64,000 nt of DNA, from NCBI GenBank assembly GCA_028712365.1, contig JAQTQE010000007.1, positions 1,026-65,025 on the forward strand, in the 5' to 3' direction. Both the position numbers and the translations under genes were made by a program. The stretch comes from a bacterium. Its GTDB lineage: Bacteria; CAYTYR01; UBA6262. How positions within the stretch are numbered: position 1 is the first letter of the stretch; every line of letters starts with the position of its first letter. Positions 4,312 through 16,781 of this stretch are shown here, one piece after another. The notes under the pieces are model-generated. The model saw only the letters and a list, made by a program, of their open reading frames with translations, was not told where the DNA came from and made no database searches.

Positions 4312-5487
4312 TTATCTGATCACGGCTATCTTTCCTTTTTCCTGCCGGCTGTTATCATCAGGATAAGTAATGACATAAACATAAATTCCGCTGGCTACTT
4401 TCTCCCCTTCTTTATTTACCAGGTTCCAGTACACAGAAGATGAATTGTTATTTTTATCTACCTCATTGATCAGCTTACCGGAAAGGTCATAGATCTCAAT
4501 GTTAGCCCTGCTCTGCAAATTGCGGAAGTAAACCCTGCTGCTGTTTTTGCAGGGATTAGGATGTGTTCGCGCTTTTGAACCAGGGCCGGGTAAGGCCGGT
4601 TCTGGTTCAGGATCATCAGGATCCGTGGGATCGGCGGCACTAGTTCCTCCATCCCAACCAGCGAGGCGTGCCCACAACCACCAGGCAGCATAGGCTTTCT
4701 GATTGGCATTCAGAGGTTGAGAATGGGCGGCAGAACAATTATACCAGTCAACTCCTTCAGTATGCGCAGCCTGCCATTCTTCAGCCCAATTATTATCACG
4801 GCTGCCATTGTTGTCACTGTCATAATTGCACCCGTCATCCGGGCTTTTATCCCCGAAATAAGCGCCGTCCGGATCATAACTTTCAATATCTTCAAAATCA
4901 TAAAGGATCTTGTCATTGGCGTTACAATAATCCCTGATCTGCTGGTTGCGGATATGGAGATTACCGGTAAGACCGCCTCCATCCAGATGACCGGTCATAT
5001 AGACGAATTTCACCTTTGGATAATCACTTTCCAGACCATTCATCAGGCTGAGATATGTACTGATATTAGAATACGAAGAACCACTTACCTGGCCGCACCA
5101 GGACCAGATGATAACGTTTATTTCAGGGTGAGCATCGAGGTAATCCCTGGTAGCGGTTTCCCAGGCAGTGAAATTCGGATTACCCAGGTCACTGGCTCCT
5201 GTAATGTTCTCCCTCAAGTCCAGAGCTCCGCCCGTACCACCGCTATTATAGGCATAGGATGACCCTTTAAAAATAACCAGGCCGGTCATGCCGGTAGTGA
5301 GTTGGCTGCCATGAGAAGTGTGCCCATAGGCGATATGCAGGTCCTGACGCGCCTTATCTACCCAGGCTGAGGGTATCGTGGACAAATTGACGCAATTGTG
5401 ATCAATAACTTTGCTCGCGCCATAAGCCGACGCAGACAGTATGAGCACATAAATAATTAAAACCAGTATTTGTATTCTTTTTTTCAT
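4312..5487 (-). CDS. Secreted protein with a C-terminal type IX secretion (Por) sorting domain. It may be a hydrolase.
   Basis: It has an N-terminal signal peptide. The C-terminus ...VYFRNLQSRANIEIYDLSGKLI...GIYVYVITYPDDNSRQEKGKIAVIR matches the T9SS CTD pattern. Confidence 0.6.
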   Translation of the reverse strand: MKKRIQILVLIIYVLILSASAYGASKVIDHNCVNLSTIPSAWVDKARQDLHIAYGHTSHGSQLTTGMTGLVIFKGSSYAYNSGGTGGALDLRENITGASDLGNPNFTAWETATRDYLDAHPEINVIIWSWCGQVSGSSYSNISTYLSLMNGLESDYPKVKFVYMTGHLDGGGLTGNLHIRNQQIRDYCNANDKILYDFEDIESYDPDGAYFGDKSPDDGCNYDSDNNGSRDNNWAEEWQAAHTEGVDWYNCSAAHSQPLNANQKAYAAWWLWARLAGWDGGTSAADPTDPDDPEPEPALPGPGSKARTHPNPCKNSSRVYFRNLQSRANIEIYDLSGKLINEVDKNNNSSSVYWNLVNKEGEKVASGIYVYVITYPDDNSRQEKGKIAVIR

Positions 5488-5498
5488 TAACGCTCCAG

Positions 5499-6488
5499 TT
5501 AAATATATAGTCTTTTTGACAATTCCTTTAGATCCCTCAGCGCGTAACCAAACATTATTCCAGCATTCTTTTTGAGTCCAAAGTGTATGCTATCTTCAAG
5601 GGCAGCCTGCAACGCGCCGCAGGCTTTATACAGCAGGACTCTCATATAAGCTGCTTCCTTTAGCGCCGGCATAGTTTTCCCGTACGCTTCCCAGAAAGAC
5701 TGGTTTGGATCAGTCCCATAAAGGATCCACTCAAAATACGGGTCTCCCCAGAGGCTCCTGTCCCAATCCAGGATAGCAGCTATCTGATAATGACTGTGTT
5801 GTTTCCTGACCAGTATGTTCCTGAGCCAAAGATCTCCGTGAATAAGTCTTGGCGTTTTTACTTTATCCAACAGGGGCGCCATTCTTCGCGCCATAGTTGA
5901 TAATGAATATTCCTGAGGAAGGCACAAATACGGATGCCCCTTCAGGTCCTCTTCCAGGGAAAGCACATACTTAGCGATAAAATCGCTCCACCTTTTATGC
6001 CGGCCAAATGGCGGCGGATAGCCGAACCATTTTCCTTTGTTCGCCAATGAATGTATCTGCCGGGCATATCCCCCAAGCTCCCGGTATATATGATCCATTT
6101 CCTTTTCAGTCAAATACTTTTGCTGATAGTGGAGTGTCTGGCCCTCACTAAACTCAGAAATGACATAATCCCGATCGATCAGTTTCCTGGTAAAGTCGGA
6201 GAACAAGAGCTGCGGGACAGGTATTCCAGTCCCTCTTAAATACCGGTTAATATATACTTCCCGTTTCAGCAGTTGTTTCTCCACTCCCAATAGCTTCTTA
6301 TCATTAGGGGGAGCGACCCTTAATACCACCATCCTTTGGTCAGCTAATTCAATTTGATAGGAAGTATTGAACAGGCCGCCGCGGATAGGCTGGGAGCGAA
6401 TCACCTTGATCCCGCTGCCCAATCCTCTCTTGATCAGTGATTCTATTGTTTTACTGCTGATGGGAGCTTTCAGGATCTTATGAGCCAA
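5499..6488 (-). CDS. Phosphotransferase (APH/choline-kinase-like) family protein.
   Basis: It carries the Brenner motif LIHGDLWLRNILV and a downstream DWD (ILDWDRS). Confidence 0.7.
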   Translation of the reverse strand: MAHKILKAPISSKTIESLIKRGLGSGIKVIRSQPIRGGLFNTSYQIELADQRMVVLRVAPPNDKKLLGVEKQLLKREVYINRYLRGTGIPVPQLLFSDFTRKLIDRDYVISEFSEGQTLHYQQKYLTEKEMDHIYRELGGYARQIHSLANKGKWFGYPPPFGRHKRWSDFIAKYVLSLEEDLKGHPYLCLPQEYSLSTMARRMAPLLDKVKTPRLIHGDLWLRNILVRKQHSHYQIAAILDWDRSLWGDPYFEWILYGTDPNQSFWEAYGKTMPALKEAAYMRVLLYKACGALQAALEDSIHFGLKKNAGIMFGYALRDLKELSKRLYI

Positions 6489-10300: not shown

Positions 10301-11089
10301 TATCCAGCCAGCCAGGTCGTTTACCGCCTGGCAGGCAGCTTCGAAACTGGCGTATCGCCACATATATGTTTGTTGATCGTTAAAATTGTAATTAAATTCG
10401 TTACCGATCGACCAGAACAGCAAGGCAGGATGATCTTTATACGTATTAATAATTTTTTGCGCCAACGCGGTATTGCAGTTTAAACCGTCTACCACCATGA
10501 TGACTTTCAAGCCGTTCCGGTAGGCTTCATCCAGGACTGCCAGGCCTTGTGTCACCGCGTTTGCCCCCTGATCGCCGATCATGGCCATACCATCCTGCCA
10601 ATCCATGAATCCATTACCATTTTCATCCAGGGCTACAGGATACCCGCCGATATATACTATATTGCCATTGGCATCGGTCTGCCACAGGAGGTGATCCGTA
10701 TTTTCATGGAAATATAAACTGCTGTCTTTAGCCAATCCCGGATCAATATACATTCTGATGGTATTGAACCCGGCTTCCCTGATCCGCGGGAAATCATACT
10801 TCGCCATCTCCCACATTCTCTTCCGGCCATCATGCTCGAATGGCGCTCCTGCCGGGTAGGTTTCCGAAGGCCAGAGAGTGGCTACGCTCCAACAGACCCC
10901 CTTGATCACGTAGTTAGTCTCTGCTTTCATCGTCCCGTCTTCCCTGATCTGATGAACTTTTAATTGGTGGCCGTCGACTCTGACCGTAGCAGGCACAGCC
11001 GGGATCGGGGGGAGCGGAGACAAGGTCTTACATGCCGCCAGAAAAACCAGTAGAACTGCCGCGGTGATGATCATTTTAAACACGCGCAT
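7349..11089 (-). CDS. Large multi-domain glycoside hydrolase lipoprotein (1246 aa). It has a GH-A clan TIM-barrel catalytic domain, Ca-binding TSP3-like repeats and Ig/BACON-like domains.
   Basis: The signal is MRVFKMIITAAVLLVFLAAC. The barrel motifs are GFNTIRMYIDPG, FWSIGNEFNYNF and YFSEYGVDAW. The run DHDHDGIYNSVDQDIDGDG...DEDSDDD is acidic and Ca-binding-like. Confidence 0.7.
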   Translation of the reverse strand: MRVFKMIITAAVLLVFLAACKTLSPLPPIPAVPATVRVDGHQLKVHQIREDGTMKAETNYVIKGVCWSVATLWPSETYPAGAPFEHDGRKRMWEMAKYDFPRIREAGFNTIRMYIDPGLAKDSSLYFHENTDHLLWQTDANGNIVYIGGYPVALDENGNGFMDWQDGMAMIGDQGANAVTQGLAVLDEAYRNGLKVIMVVDGLNCNTALAQKIINTYKDHPALLFWSIGNEFNYNFNDQQTYMWRYASFEAACQAVNDLAGWIKANDPNHPVAVCLGEPHYPSYEHYKAGVGLLPNIDLIGLNLYKGKSFDPFYEMYADTVTCNKPYYFSEYGVDAWRYHTDPAKEFEDVASQKEGLSWQWSEIQSRLSAQDNSDSLLGGCAFEWVDEWWKLKGKNPETHDNDPGYPVNNGVPANTYLWPDGCMEEEFWGLNSQDPKTINPLVFFSDMGLIGEQKGGSPAWDFFTWGLPAQGTGYGKINSQADYISLQEGSRLNYSNFKEYAYTGGSGAGNIIPEGHRCTYTEIWGKDYGGGWGLFRTRDFIDLSRFANGDLKFWIKIQQTTTPATPIGEPLKQDIFLKFEDESGLENAVFIWFDESYFSEFNANSTAWQEITVPISALWDSHSYTWQDEYGYKHPANGSHLAKLNLEKMKMVFSVSSRPIRTGNGNIQYWIDHVRWDTGGTSGYNRRARPAITDYRNRYNALNYLKPVFEVEAGSDLNASSARITKNDSLIWDFDASSPACVLAAAFDPDSGRLISKSMKELTSVTAVHNWLDQYDNTSDKYILALAKHKQVNFLAQCAKLGAFGSTLYSSVSPHDPWVFIVYVKNGIGLAKKETKGSGNMAKVTLAVPLDHDHDGIYNSVDQDIDGDGLALAQEIRYGTSITDEDSDDDAVSDSAEVAAGTNPRNPDSKNLAADPPAKLVAYPLTLDWSNNESERYIYLDNDGGKILKYKIYISDDWFSVNCRDHANSEAWTAVTPEAYVYDDLDDFILRVTLDRTKLTATKTYTGTITLLAVDENGTGAGRKDITVSVPVQPELFIAASEVVINRPETARKINIENNGFAAMNWSISQLRPVTWLAITPATGTTVNEMEPVALTVDWSAVTASTHTVMVVDAGSAGKKFITVTLDDPNAVRFPNQLPKSKKSLPALLETDSEHLIIGPLVQAGAFKIKSASGQTISWTLSEDEDWITIIMPVHGDTTGEEDIVTVMVDHGSYIADQTGKVTIAWTDADNNQYKKNIYITMKKQ

Positions 11090-13888: not shown

Positions 13889-15487
13889 TTATTCTTGTTC
13901 CTTTCGCTCGATATAATCCATGATCCCATTAAAGATCGTTTTCGCTATCTTATCATTAAAGCTGCCCTTGTTCAATAACCTTTCTTCGCGCTTATTGGAC
14001 AAGAAAGCGCATTCGACCAGCACTGCCGGCATTTTGGCCCCGCGCAGGACATAAAAACCAGCTTGTTTTACTCCCCGGTTGAGCAGGTCCACGTCCATTT
14101 CATTGACCCGTCCTACGACAAAGGAACACAATTCACTGGAATCATTGACAAATTCATTCAAGGTCAGTGACCACAGGATAGCTTTTAACTTATCAGTCAC
14201 GGCTGATCTATCTTCCAGATCAATGACCGAGTTTTCGATATTCGCTACTGCTTCAGCTTCCATATCCGTAGCCCGTTCACTTAAAAAATAGATCTCAAAC
14301 CCGCTGGCCTTACGGTCCAAGCCAGAGTTGCAGTGAATAGAGACAAATAGATCGGCTTTTTTAAGGTTGGCGATCTGGGTGCGTTCGGCTAAGGGTATGA
14401 ATTCGTCTTCTTTCCTGGTGAGAATGACCTGCAAATTAGTTTTTTCATGCAACAACTGGGCCAATTTAAAGGCCAGAGAGAGATTAACATCTTTTTCCTT
14501 GGTGCCATATTGCCCTATAGCGCCCGGGTCCTTACCGCCATGTCCGGGATCGATCACGATTGTTCTTATTTTAGCAGTATTGACTTTCTTTGGTGGTTCA
14601 GGTTTGGATCTTATCTCTGGCGTGACTACCGGTGGTGGAGACAATTCCGGGGTAACTGGCGGAGCTTTCACCACTGCTACGCTGGCTGGCTGTGTAGACG
14701 CGGATATTTCCGACTCTGGCGGACAAACCTGGGCCCCTGTCTTCTTGATATTAACCAATATACGCCAGGGATTATCAACAACTTTGACACTGTATTCGAA
14801 TTCCGGGCAAACCTCTATCACCCAAGATACTTTATTGCTTTTTTGGATCAGGTTCATATTGGTGACCAAGGCATTACCCGGCACCGTGTATTTCTTATCC
14901 TGGTCCAGCACCCCTTTATAGATATCTACTGTGATCTTATTAGCCGCTTCCAGGGATGTCTCATAATACAGTTTTTCCTGGGTCTCCAATATTAGCTGGC
15001 TGAGGCCTTCTTGCTGTTGCGTTTTCACTCCGGATATATTAGGGGTTTGGAATATTTTTAAGGTTTTGGTTGATTCATCGAATTTTATTCTCAGCCCGAC
15101 AGGTTTGGTAAAACCGCGGCTGATAATAAAACTAAGAGGAACGTAAAGGTCCCCTTTTTCCAAGCGGCAAACCGAGGTCATCTTGACCTTCTGTTCATTG
15201 ATCGTAGCGGTTCTGCCGAAATATGTCAATTCGATCCGCACGCCTTTGAGGGACAAGATCACTTTTTTACTGACCGGCAGCCATTTTATATCGGCAGCCA
15301 GGAAATCAGCCAAGTCACTGACATCGAGGAATTTTTCCTTATTTAGTTCGTATAGTTTAGCGTTTTCAGTGCGGGTTCCGTTATCAAGAGTGACTTTGAT
15401 CGATAGCGGTACAGGCTGCGCCTGTACCGGTGTAACAAACAATGAAGATAGCAATAGAAATAAAGGGATGGTAATTTTAGAATGCAA
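13889..15487 (-). CDS. N-acetylmuramoyl-L-alanine amidase (Amidase_3) with an N-terminal AMIN-like region.
   Basis: The Amidase_3 motif is IVIDPGHGGKDPGAIG...VSIHCNS...E.YF. The signal peptide is PLFLLLSSLFVTPVQA. A probable TTG start at 15487 sits behind AAGGAA. Confidence 0.75.
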   Translation of the reverse strand: MHSKITIPLFLLLSSLFVTPVQAQPVPLSIKVTLDNGTRTENAKLYELNKEKFLDVSDLADFLAADIKWLPVSKKVILSLKGVRIELTYFGRTATINEQKVKMTSVCRLEKGDLYVPLSFIISRGFTKPVGLRIKFDESTKTLKIFQTPNISGVKTQQQEGLSQLILETQEKLYYETSLEAANKITVDIYKGVLDQDKKYTVPGNALVTNMNLIQKSNKVSWVIEVCPEFEYSVKVVDNPWRILVNIKKTGAQVCPPESEISASTQPASVAVVKAPPVTPELSPPPVVTPEIRSKPEPPKKVNTAKIRTIVIDPGHGGKDPGAIGQYGTKEKDVNLSLAFKLAQLLHEKTNLQVILTRKEDEFIPLAERTQIANLKKADLFVSIHCNSGLDRKASGFEIYFLSERATDMEAEAVANIENSVIDLEDRSAVTDKLKAILWSLTLNEFVNDSSELCSFVVGRVNEMDVDLLNRGVKQAGFYVLRGAKMPAVLVECAFLSNKREERLLNKGSFNDKIAKTIFNGIMDYIERKEQE

Positions 15488-15533
15488 AACCCCGTTCCTT
15501 TCTAGGATAAATAGGAAATAATAATTGAGAATA

Positions 15534-15576
15534 GAAAATCGAAAATTGACCACAATCAAATCTCGATTTTCGATTG
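15534..15576. promoter_or_regulatory. Palindromic tandem-heptamer element upstream of the amidase gene.
   Basis: (GAAAATC)(GAAAAT)TGACCACAATCAAATCT(CGATTTT)(CGATT) is an inverted tandem repeat about 60 nt 5' of the amidase start. Confidence 0.25.
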
Positions 15577-15583
15577 TTCTAAA

Positions 15584-15600
15584 TTTTGCCAAGGGCAAAA
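15584..15600 (-). terminator. Probable rho-independent terminator in the ssrA 3' trailer.
   Basis: On the minus strand a perfect 7-bp hairpin (TTTTGCC CTT GGCAAAA) is followed by TTTAGAAC. Confidence 0.4.
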
Positions 15601-15743
15601 TATGGAGGTGCCGGGAATCCTCCTCACCCAGGCCGTATGCGCGGCCTTCCTTCGTCGCCGGCCAGTCTCGCTCGGACCAATGGCGCTCAACTTGGCTTCG
15701 ATTCCCTTAAGCAAGGGAGAAAATATGGAGGTGCCGGGAATCG
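15590..15743. repeat. About 30-bp direct repeat of the tmRNA 3' end. Copy 1 is at 15590-15619 and copy 2, the functional 3' end, is at 15712-15743. The repeats flank a GC-rich 92-bp stretch.
   Basis: AAGGG(C/AG)AAAATATGGAGGTGCCGGGAATC occurs twice. Only copy 2 continues into the T-arm (GAACCCGG). Confidence 0.7.
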
Positions 15744-16075
15744 AACCCGGGTCCCAAAATACGGTGTCGAGAACTTCTACAGGTTTAGTCTAGTAATTGA
15801 TTTCGCTGCTTCTGGCTCCACTAGATAGGATACAAAGGCAGCTATCCTTACTGATCTCACTTGACTCGCTAAGGAGTAACTCGTCAAGCCAGCCTACAGT
15901 TTTTGTACCTCTACCGCCCGTAGGCAGAGCAGGTAAAGATACTACGCCTTAACAGGCGTATGCGTACTGCGTGTTATAGTTAGCAGTTATAATTTGCTAG
16001 GTATTTAACGGCGACCCAACCATGCCGACCTGCCATCCAAGACCCCAAATATTCCGGTCGAAACCTTTCACCCCC
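15726..16075 (-). ncRNA. ssrA: tmRNA (SsrA), standard one-piece form.
   Basis: The minus strand begins GGGGGUGAAAGGUUUCGACCGG... at the 5' end. It ends ...GGACCCGGGUUCGAUUCCCGGCACCUCCA with a tRNA-like T-arm and acceptor, and CCA is not encoded. The gene lies immediately downstream of smpB. Confidence 0.8.
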
Positions 16076-16077
16076 AT

Positions 16078-16122
16078 CTGAAATACAAATTCTAAATCCT
16101 AAATTCGAAATTCTAAACAAAG
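16078..16122. repeat. Short family B copy.
   Basis: GAAATACAAATTCTAAATCCTAAATTCGAAATTCTAAACAAAG lies between the ssrA 5' end and the smpB stop. Confidence 0.4.
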
Positions 16123-16578
16123 TTATTTATGTTTTTCGCGAAAGGCTCTTTGCATTTCTCTCTGAGCATCCTTCTTTTTCAACTCGTCTCTCTTATCCCG
16201 TGCATTCCTGCCACGCGCCAGGGCCAATTTTACTTTCACATTTCCTTTACTGAAATATAATTCCAAAGGGACCAAAGTCAGCCCCTTTTCTTTGACTTTG
16301 CCCATTAGCTTTTTTATCTCTTTTTTATGCAAAAGCAATTTGCGTACCCGTAAAGCGTCACATTCTTCCAGGCGCGAATGTTCATATGGCGAAATATGCA
16401 TATTATAAAGAAAGACTTCTTCTTTATTGATACTGGCATGGGCATCGCCCATATTGATATGGCCGCCCCTGATCGACTTCACTTCATTGCCTTTTAGGAC
16501 AATACCAGCCTCAAAAGAATCCAGGATCTCGTAATTATGCAGGGCTTTACGGTTCGTAGAAATGTTTTTTCGTTCCAT
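16123..16578 (-). CDS. smpB: SsrA-binding protein.
   Basis: MERKNISTNRKALHNYEI...GNEVKSIRGGHINMGDAHA... is canonical SmpB. The ORF extension upstream of this Met is antisense to a tRNA. Confidence 0.9.
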   Translation of the reverse strand: MERKNISTNRKALHNYEILDSFEAGIVLKGNEVKSIRGGHINMGDAHASINKEEVFLYNMHISPYEHSRLEECDALRVRKLLLHKKEIKKLMGKVKEKGLTLVPLELYFSKGNVKVKLALARGRNARDKRDELKKKDAQREMQRAFREKHK

Positions 16579-16694: not shown

Positions 16695-16781
16695 GGACGA
16701 GTGGCGGAATTGGCATACGCGTAGCGCTCAGGACGCTATGGTCGTTAGACCTTAAGGGTTCAACTCCCTTCTCGTCCACCA
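16695..16781 (+). tRNA. tRNA-Leu (anticodon CAG), type II with a long variable arm. CCA is encoded.
   Basis: GGACGAGTGGCGGAATTGGCATACGCGTAGCGCTCAGGACGCTA...GGTTCAACTCCCTTCTCGTCCACCA. The D-arm is near-identical to E. coli tRNA-Leu. The anticodon loop is CUCAGGA. Confidence 0.85.

Follow-up and report, generated by a model that had tools for sequence, protein, structure and literature searches.

A probable footprint of site-specific integration at the 3' end of the tmRNA gene in an uncultured Elusimicrobiota lineage

In the stretch of 64 kb of bacterial DNA analysed here (the window), the last nucleotides of the tmRNA gene, ssrA, occur twice in direct orientation. We consider that the 123 bp accounting for this duplication are probably (with a probability of roughly 0.7) a footprint that site-specific integration left in the 3' end of ssrA, at a site reaching from the T-loop to the 3' end of the gene, and that they are either what a deletion has left or a miniature non-autonomous element. 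The footprint is made of 100 bp of GC-rich DNA and a second copy of the repeat. A previous sequence-only reading of the region had interpreted it as the scar of an element that targets ssrA, or else as a tiny residual island; this view is supported by an empty site in one relative (L012) and by another insert at the same site in two others (L003 and L002), whereas a full island, a parent element and an integrase were not found and the extent of the duplicated segment had been overstated.

The host of the window is an uncultured member of the Elusimicrobiota; judged by SmpB, the nearest genomes at species level are MAGs that bear the label Elusimicrobia or 'bacterium'. On the minus strand, smpB lies upstream of ssrA and a gene of the Amidase_3 type lies downstream (Table 1). 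The synteny of tRNA-Leu, smpB, ssrA, amidase, racemase, PTPS, queC and queE is kept in most relatives.

Table 1. Features at the ssrA locus, in positions of the window.
Feature	Coordinates	Strand	Evidence or remark
smpB, upstream neighbour	16123..16578	-	Pfam PF01668
ssrA (tmRNA gene), one-piece	15726..16075	-	ARAGORN; Rfam RF00023, 182.2 bits, model positions 1-374, full length
Proximal repeat copy (attL-like), GATTCCCGGCACCTCCATATTTT	15720..15742	-	runs on into the true T-arm on its 5' side; the functional tmRNA gene takes its last 17 nt from it, and 6 nt of trailer follow
Insert, 100 nt, between the exact cores	15620..15719	-	63% GC; no ORF of its own
Inverted T-arm-like motif in the insert, GGCTTCGATTCCC	15694..15706	+	reverse complement (12/13) of tmRNA T-arm segment 15736-15748
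GC-rich hairpin GGCCG-TATGCG-CGGCC in the insert	15631..15646		read from sequence; in the MFE fold; sole element kept in the centroid fold
Distal repeat copy (attR-like)	15597..15619	-	no T-arm 5' half before it; joined to the native trailer
Native ssrA trailer, 77 nt, two hairpins	15526..15602	-	alignment to L012, 75/77 identical
Trailer hairpin TTTTGCC-CTT-GGCAAAA	15578-15606	-	inverted repeat search; directly abuts the tmRNA end in L012
Trailer AT-rich hairpin, 20-nt arms	15530-15575	-	inverted repeat search
N-acetylmuramoyl-L-alanine amidase, downstream neighbour	13889..15487	-	Pfam PF01520 and PF07833

The duplicated end of ssrA and the DNA between its copies

The ssrA gene is intact in the window, including its T-arm and its acceptor stem, for which the pairing GGGGGUG/CACCUCC is read from the sequence; the G3:U70 pair is present, and the terminal CCA is not encoded. 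The predicted proteolysis tag is ANYNTQYAYAC*, with its frame at 15949-15984. This tag ends in Y-A-C, whereas the usual end is hydrophobic, of the ...LAA type; among the relatives the variants ANYNTNTQFAYAC, ANYNTQFSYAC and ANYNTQFAYAC occur, and the terminal YAC is retained in all.

A repeat search returned a direct repeat of 32 nt (15588-15619 and 15711-15742, 88% identity without gaps, spacing 123), within which the two copies share an exact core of 23 nt with the same spacing. Within the 64 kb this core occurs twice and no more, even when up to three mismatches are allowed, and none of 100 shuffles gave any match, which confirms the earlier claim that the ssrA 3' end is duplicated in direct orientation. 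The duplication is shorter than had been thought: it takes in 17 nt of the gene, and not about 30, comprising GATT of the T-loop, the 3' strand of the T-stem, the 3' acceptor strand and the discriminator A. These are followed by 6 nt of trailer (TATTTT) and then, in both copies, by an imperfect extension, CCCTTG, offset by a 1-nt indel. The spacing of 122 bp given by the sequence-only reading likewise becomes 123 for the core.

The repeat begins at GATT within the T-loop TTCGATT, which is the canonical T-loop sublocation. As the sequence-only reading had pointed out, a single copy reaches the T-arm: the 5' half of this arm stands ahead of the proximal copy alone, and it is this copy that the full-length 182-bit tmRNA uses, so that the direct repeat flanks the insert and the gene is regenerated intact. 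From its sequence context, the distal copy appears to be the displaced native 3' end of ssrA. It is perfect although free of tmRNA constraint, as would be expected of a very recent event, or of an att site that still functions, no less than of an old and decayed scar.

The insert is foreign by composition (63% GC against 46% in the 64-kb window, with local 90-nt windows peaking at 0.667) and carries no cargo. The GC-rich contrast described earlier thus stands, with new figures for a segment that had been given as 92 bp of about 60% GC against about 43%, and the GGCCG...CGGCC hairpin noticed at the time is present (Table 1). In the window and in all the relatives' loci that were fetched, the insert is a unique, single-copy sequence, found only in the window and in L001, a separately assembled JGI contig (sample 3300037067) that is 99.8% identical, with 11 differences over 6.5 kb, and has the same 123 bp. 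The left end of the insert carries GGGAATCGAAGCC, which is the reverse complement (12/13) of the T-arm segment GGGTTCGATTCCC. This likeness is beyond chance, only 4 of 2000 dinucleotide shuffles of the insert complementing the tmRNA 3' end equally well, and the motif may be a putative recombinase half-site in the arm. Otherwise, the two ends share only CTCC/GGAG, with essentially no other terminal inverted repeats.

Several other origins of the insert were rejected. Derivation from the native trailer beyond CCCTTG is not significant (559 of 2000 shuffles), and the comparison of the insert 3' arm with the tmRNA sequence 5' of the core is not significant either (4168 of 5000 shuffles). A tandem duplication is rejected, the insert being unlike both the tmRNA sequence upstream of the core and the trailer. 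A MITE or IS derivative is ruled out by ends that have CTCC/GGAG alone in common, by a duplication of 23 nt and by the single copy in the window and the relatives.

The ssrA site in related lineages

Relatives were located via SmpB homologues of 73-93% identity, which gave about ten related lineages. L001, with an SmpB 100% identical to that of the window, has the same 23-nt repeat around the same 100-nt insert, and encodes no CCA. In L012 (MAG STB_115), whose SmpB is 91% and tmRNA 98.0% identical and which also encodes no CCA, the site is empty: a single tmRNA 3' end, ...CACCTCCA, is joined straight to AATTTTGCCCTTGGCAAAATTTAGAAC..., the same trailer as stands after the distal copy in the window. 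The tmRNA gene of L012 ends ...CACCUCCA and runs directly into this hairpin-rich trailer. L012 thus provides an unoccupied site, and the window differs from it by exactly one additional 123-bp unit. We infer, from parsimony, that the L012 arrangement is the ancestral junction and that the unit was gained in the window rather than lost in L012; alternatively, recombination between the 23-nt repeats could have removed the insert from L012.

A different arrangement is found in L003 (SmpB 86%, CCA not encoded), where a 14-nt repeat, TCCCGGCACCTCCA, with a spacing of 100, surrounds an unrelated insert of 86 nt (2848-2961); this insert shares no sequence with that of the window. The distal copy of the repeat in L003 is followed by a hairpin homologous to the first native trailer hairpin of the window. 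L002 (SmpB 87%, CCA encoded) shares the right 46 nt of the L003 insert together with a truncated copy of the repeat (TCCCGGCAC; about 1123-1290), and the left part of its segment resembles the L009 trailer. On these alignments, L003 and L002 carry a second, independent scar, and the site has been hit more than once in the clade.

The remaining relatives (L013, L014/L078, L004-L008/L017, L009, L010 and L016; SmpB 78-93%) have a single 3' end and encode the CCA. The insert is missing from all the other relatives, about eight lineages, and their trailers are mutually unrelated, diverging from the discriminator base, or from the CCA, onward. Because the relatives differ at the site, the segment is not a conserved functional trailer. 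The sequence-only reading had suggested such a comparison of related genomes, and had taken a duplicated segment conserved in all of them as the outcome that would speak against integration; L012 and the others without the insert, as well as L003 and L002 with a different one, do not show this outcome. Relatives with an island between the repeats, which it had also suggested looking for, were absent among the about ten lineages.

The CCA is encoded in ssrA of L002, L004, L009, L010, L013, L014 and L016 and absent in the window (15723-15726), L012 and L003, despite tmRNAs that are 92-98% identical. Close relatives would thus differ in the route by which the 3' end of the tmRNA is matured, and the variation may have come about as a side effect of integrating elements replacing the 3' end.

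Two further observations concern the trailers of the relatives. No genes lie between ssrA and the amidase gene in the relatives, except in L012, in which two adjacent genes for small membrane proteins (188 and 191 aa) follow the trailer at 4525-5666. This two-gene stretch has no ssrA-end repeat, is flanked on both sides by the RBS-like sequence AAAGAAAGG, and is a lineage-specific indel. In L013 the trailer (10914-10971) contains a 10-nt direct repeat (CACAGATTAA, spacing 48) around a GC-rich hairpin (CCCGCCAAAAAGCGCTGGCGGG), which may be another small insertion.

Integration and its alternatives

In the scheme that we favour, a circular element with an attP matching the segment from the T-loop to the trailer would have recombined with ssrA. 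The 17 nt at the end of the gene, together with the first bases of the trailer, would have come from the element, with the tmRNA sequence left unchanged, while the native 3' end would have been displaced 123 nt downstream with the native trailer still attached. The interior, including the recombinase gene, would later have been deleted, with 100 nt of GC-rich arm DNA left behind; or else the element would have been miniature and non-autonomous from the start. The empty site would then read ...GGTTCGATTCCCGGCACCTCCATATTTTGCCCTTGG and the circular attP ...GGGTGAGGAGGATTCCCGGCACCTCCATATTTTCTCCCTTGC.

We favour integration because the exact repeat is far beyond chance and, as in ssrA-targeting islands, starts in the T-loop and runs through the 3' end of the gene, with the proximal copy completing a full-scoring tmRNA. 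The comparison with relatives points the same way, since L012 offers an empty site with a trailer identical at 75 of 77 positions, against about 52% upstream of ssrA, since the compositionally foreign insert is found nowhere in the relatives' loci, and since the independent assembly L001 shows the same structure. Moreover, L003 and L002 carry an independent scar, and the trailers of L013, L014/L078, L004, L009, L010 and L016 are wholly different. Repeated integration in the clade would explain both this second scar and the fact that trailers of close relatives are unrelated from the discriminator onward. The inverted T-arm-like motif at the left end of the insert is as expected of a recombinase half-site, and attP-like cores of the same kind exist in two viral contigs (L105 and L110). 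Against integration stand the lack of any mobile-element gene in the 64 kb, of a full island in the about ten lineages and of a source for the 100 nt; the direction of the change comes from parsimony, and the perfect distal copy suits a very recent event or a usable att site no less well than an old, decayed scar.

The search for a parent element covered the window and several collections. The 64-kb window has 49 ORFs of 120 aa or more, all with ordinary cellular Pfam domains and none with a recombinase, transposase or phage family, in agreement with the earlier statement that the window has no integrase; nor does an integrase lie within the element itself, the 100-nt insert being gene-free. 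Since neither insert nor window holds an integrase, the footprint can be filed only as a remnant or as a non-autonomous derivative. In blastn comparisons of the region with GenBank phages and PLSDB plasmids, only the tmRNA T-arm was matched, and IMG/VR viral contigs gave no match for the attR junction, the attL-side insert, the 23-nt core or the L002/L003 junction. The search of the insert against mobile-element sequences that the sequence-only reading had proposed therefore yielded no source in phages, plasmids or viral contigs. A scan of metagenome contigs with a clade-specific pattern for the tmRNA 3' end returned one locus, already known, and a protein search with the antisense ORF spanning both repeat copies returned no match.

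The 17-nt gene part of the core was found at 32 loci in IMG/VR, most of them tmRNAs of phages. Without the 5' half of the T-stem, it occurs in two GC-rich viral contigs, L105 and L110 (67-70% GC). In L105 a gene for a tyrosine integrase (PF00589) starts about 150 nt downstream of the core, and in L110 the core is followed by a similar ORF, truncated at the end of the contig. On this sequence evidence, attP sites with a T-loop core are real. Like these temperate-phage attP sites, the window has the identical 17-nt core, GATTCCCGGCACCTCCA, starting at the T-loop without the 5' T-stem; unlike it, the contigs have flanks sharing nothing with the insert and cores that continue differently after the discriminator, and both were rejected as parent element.

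For a general survey of integrative elements that target this gene, see Williams (2003), 'Traffic at the tmRNA gene'. In Dehalococcoides, ssrA islands have a repeat of 20 bp with mid-T-loop insertion and form tandem arrays, and some of them are without integration modules, which led the authors to regard them as possible cis-mobilizable elements (PMC3146451). As with ssrA-targeting islands and prophages, the gene is regenerated intact in the window, relatives have empty or differently occupied sites, and the DNA downstream of ssrA is hypervariable. Unlike such islands, the window has 100 nt between the repeats, with no integrase, integration module or cargo, and no relative examined has a full-length occupant. 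CIMEs (cf. ICEberg 2.0) are att-flanked, lack integrase and transfer genes, and are mobilized by a related integrative element. Similarly, the two intact att-like 23-nt copies in the window flank DNA without recombination or transfer genes. Described CIMEs, however, extend over kilobases and contain genes, and a cognate element sharing their att sites can be identified, whereas the insert is 100 nt and no cognate autonomous element was found in the window, in the about ten related loci or in the phage, plasmid and viral collections. The footprint is a further instance of a well-known phenomenon, and no sign of current activity or function was seen among the sequences compared.

It is rather unlikely that the insert and the two 23-nt repeats constitute a complete miniature non-autonomous integrative element, movable by a recombinase encoded elsewhere or on a helper, with L012 as its unoccupied site and with an attP junction that would read GGGTGAGGAG-GATTCCCGGCACCTCCATATTTT-CTCCCTTGC. 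Both att-like copies are identical, including the 6 trailer bases outside tmRNA selection, and the empty site in the close relative L012, the comparably small insert (86 nt) between ssrA-end repeats in L003 and the significant inverted T-arm-like motif, retained as a putative binding site, are all consistent with such an element, as is the proposal of cis-mobilization for Dehalococcoides islands that have intact ssrA repeats but no integration module (PMC3146451). But a single copy in a single context is known (the window and L001), the window encodes no helper integrase, and the inserts of the window and of L003 share no sequence. Furthermore, 100 nt is, to our knowledge, far smaller than any described cis-mobilizable element. 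A broader and more speculative proposal, to which we give little credence, is that a family of att-flanked mini-cassettes of about 90-120 nt services the ssrA 3' end in this Elusimicrobiota clade, each bringing a tmRNA 3' end and the first trailer bases and being moved in trans by a recombinase encoded elsewhere; the inserts of the window (100 nt, spacing 123) and of L003 (86 nt, spacing 100) would be live members. Such cassette turnover, if true, would explain the unrelated trailers of near-identical tmRNA genes, the coming and going of an encoded CCA and the still-perfect distal repeat.

We also find it improbable that no site-specific recombinase took part, and that filler DNA was captured in break repair or template switching, re-priming upstream of the departure point having given the 23-nt duplication. 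Although neither a recombinase nor a parent element was found, terminal inverted repeats are essentially nil beyond CTCC/GGAG and the inverted T-arm-like segment could be a fold-back product, the duplication coincides with the canonical recombinase target from the T-loop to the end of ssrA, and an independent event placed a different insert at the same site in L003. In addition, the CCCTTG after the repeat resembles the native trailer, as expected of an attP adapted to the site, and a source of the 100 nt is absent from the window and the relatives' loci. That the ssrA transcript has a functional portion in the duplicated segment and the insert, whether as a structured 3' trailer, as a small RNA or as a fragment of a second or permuted tmRNA, is very unlikely. 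The insert, which follows ssrA on the same strand, is probably transcribed with it, its left end is paired with the T-arm in the MFE fold, and a weak tmRNA_permuted hit of 20 bits was obtained with the true T-arm included; yet this hit vanished when the T-arm was excluded, the insert then matching no Rfam family, the insert folds no better than shuffled sequences (z = +0.64), and origin from the tmRNA body is rejected as not significant, 163 of 1000 shuffles scoring as well. The segment moreover occurs in the same population only and is absent from every other relative, as conservation would not have it, and a structured RNA or a second or permuted tmRNA is rejected on these findings. Finally, both sequences with the repeat and insert are short-read metagenome assemblies, and the sequence-only reading had raised an assembly artefact, the structure being absent from the organism. 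We hold this to be extremely improbable, as L001 is a separate JGI assembly with 11 differences over 6.5 kb and an identical 123 bp, the insert is unique and so not a collapsed repeat, and a 23-nt repeat is short relative to the usual assembly k-mers.

Trailer, transcription and gene context

The hairpin TTTTGCC-CTT-GGCAAAA, previously described as the probable ssrA terminator, is real: it was found by the inverted repeat search and abuts the tmRNA end in L012. It was not flagged by the terminator scan because its T-tail is weak. The native trailer is the probable terminator region, now 123 nt further from ssrA. As the proximal trailer has no convincing terminator, read-through of the insert is probable, and transcription would pass through it as far as the native hairpins at 15530-15606. 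The precursor would then be cut at the discriminator and, since the CCA is not encoded, this would be added enzymatically. Today the insert is most likely inert, without a function of its own.

The trailer is 75/77 identical between the window (15526-15602) and L012 (4429-4505), compared with about 52%, a random level, for the 60 nt upstream of ssrA and 77-85% for the flanking genes, and this identity ends abruptly at the extra genes of L012. Such conservation (97%) could reflect a strong constraint, as of a terminator or promoter, or recent exchange of the segment. Immediately upstream of ssrA (16078-16117), an imperfect tandem repeat of 19 nt (CTGAAATACAAATTCTAAA / CTAAATTCGAAATTCTAAA) overlaps the sole minus-strand promoter-like site, TTTAGA-17-TAGAAT (16117-16089), which is probably the ssrA promoter region.

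Beyond annotation, the significance of the footprint is slight. It flags ssrA as a site where integration is, or recently was, active in an uncultured Elusimicrobiota lineage, and gives the exact attB (T-loop to discriminator plus the start of the trailer) with occupied and empty alleles that can be compared. If the insert were mobile, all att-flanked integrative elements described so far would be far larger, and it would offer a tmRNA-targeting recombinase a convenient minimal substrate. The footprint also calls for caution, in that an ORF called across the trailer is spurious. The amidase gene likely starts at the TTG at 15487-15485, ahead of a signal peptide, with a leader that is conserved in relatives, whereas the mechanical ORF (13889-15598, minus strand) over-extends into the trailer and the JGI call starts at 15592. 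On the plus strand (15586-15828), mechanical ORFs cross the repeats and the insert, including an antisense ORF of 80 aa with KYGGAGN twice. The ORF calls over the repeats, insert and trailer are spurious or over-extended, and are caused by the non-coding region.

A few observations concern the wider locus. SmpB is 151 aa long in the window, against 181 aa in the database call. The coding-strand bias is complete over the 64 kb, all 49 of the ORFs of at least 120 aa (after overlap filtering) lying on the minus strand; of the four tRNA genes, only that for tRNA-Leu (16695-16781) is encoded by the plus strand. A look-up of the identical racemase protein revealed the same population in two further samples (L081, JGI 3300029288, and L082, ENA ERZ27247363), whose contigs both break within the amidase, about 391-392 residues from its C-terminus and short of ssrA. 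The shared break point suggests that this stretch of the amidase is strain-variable or hard to assemble.
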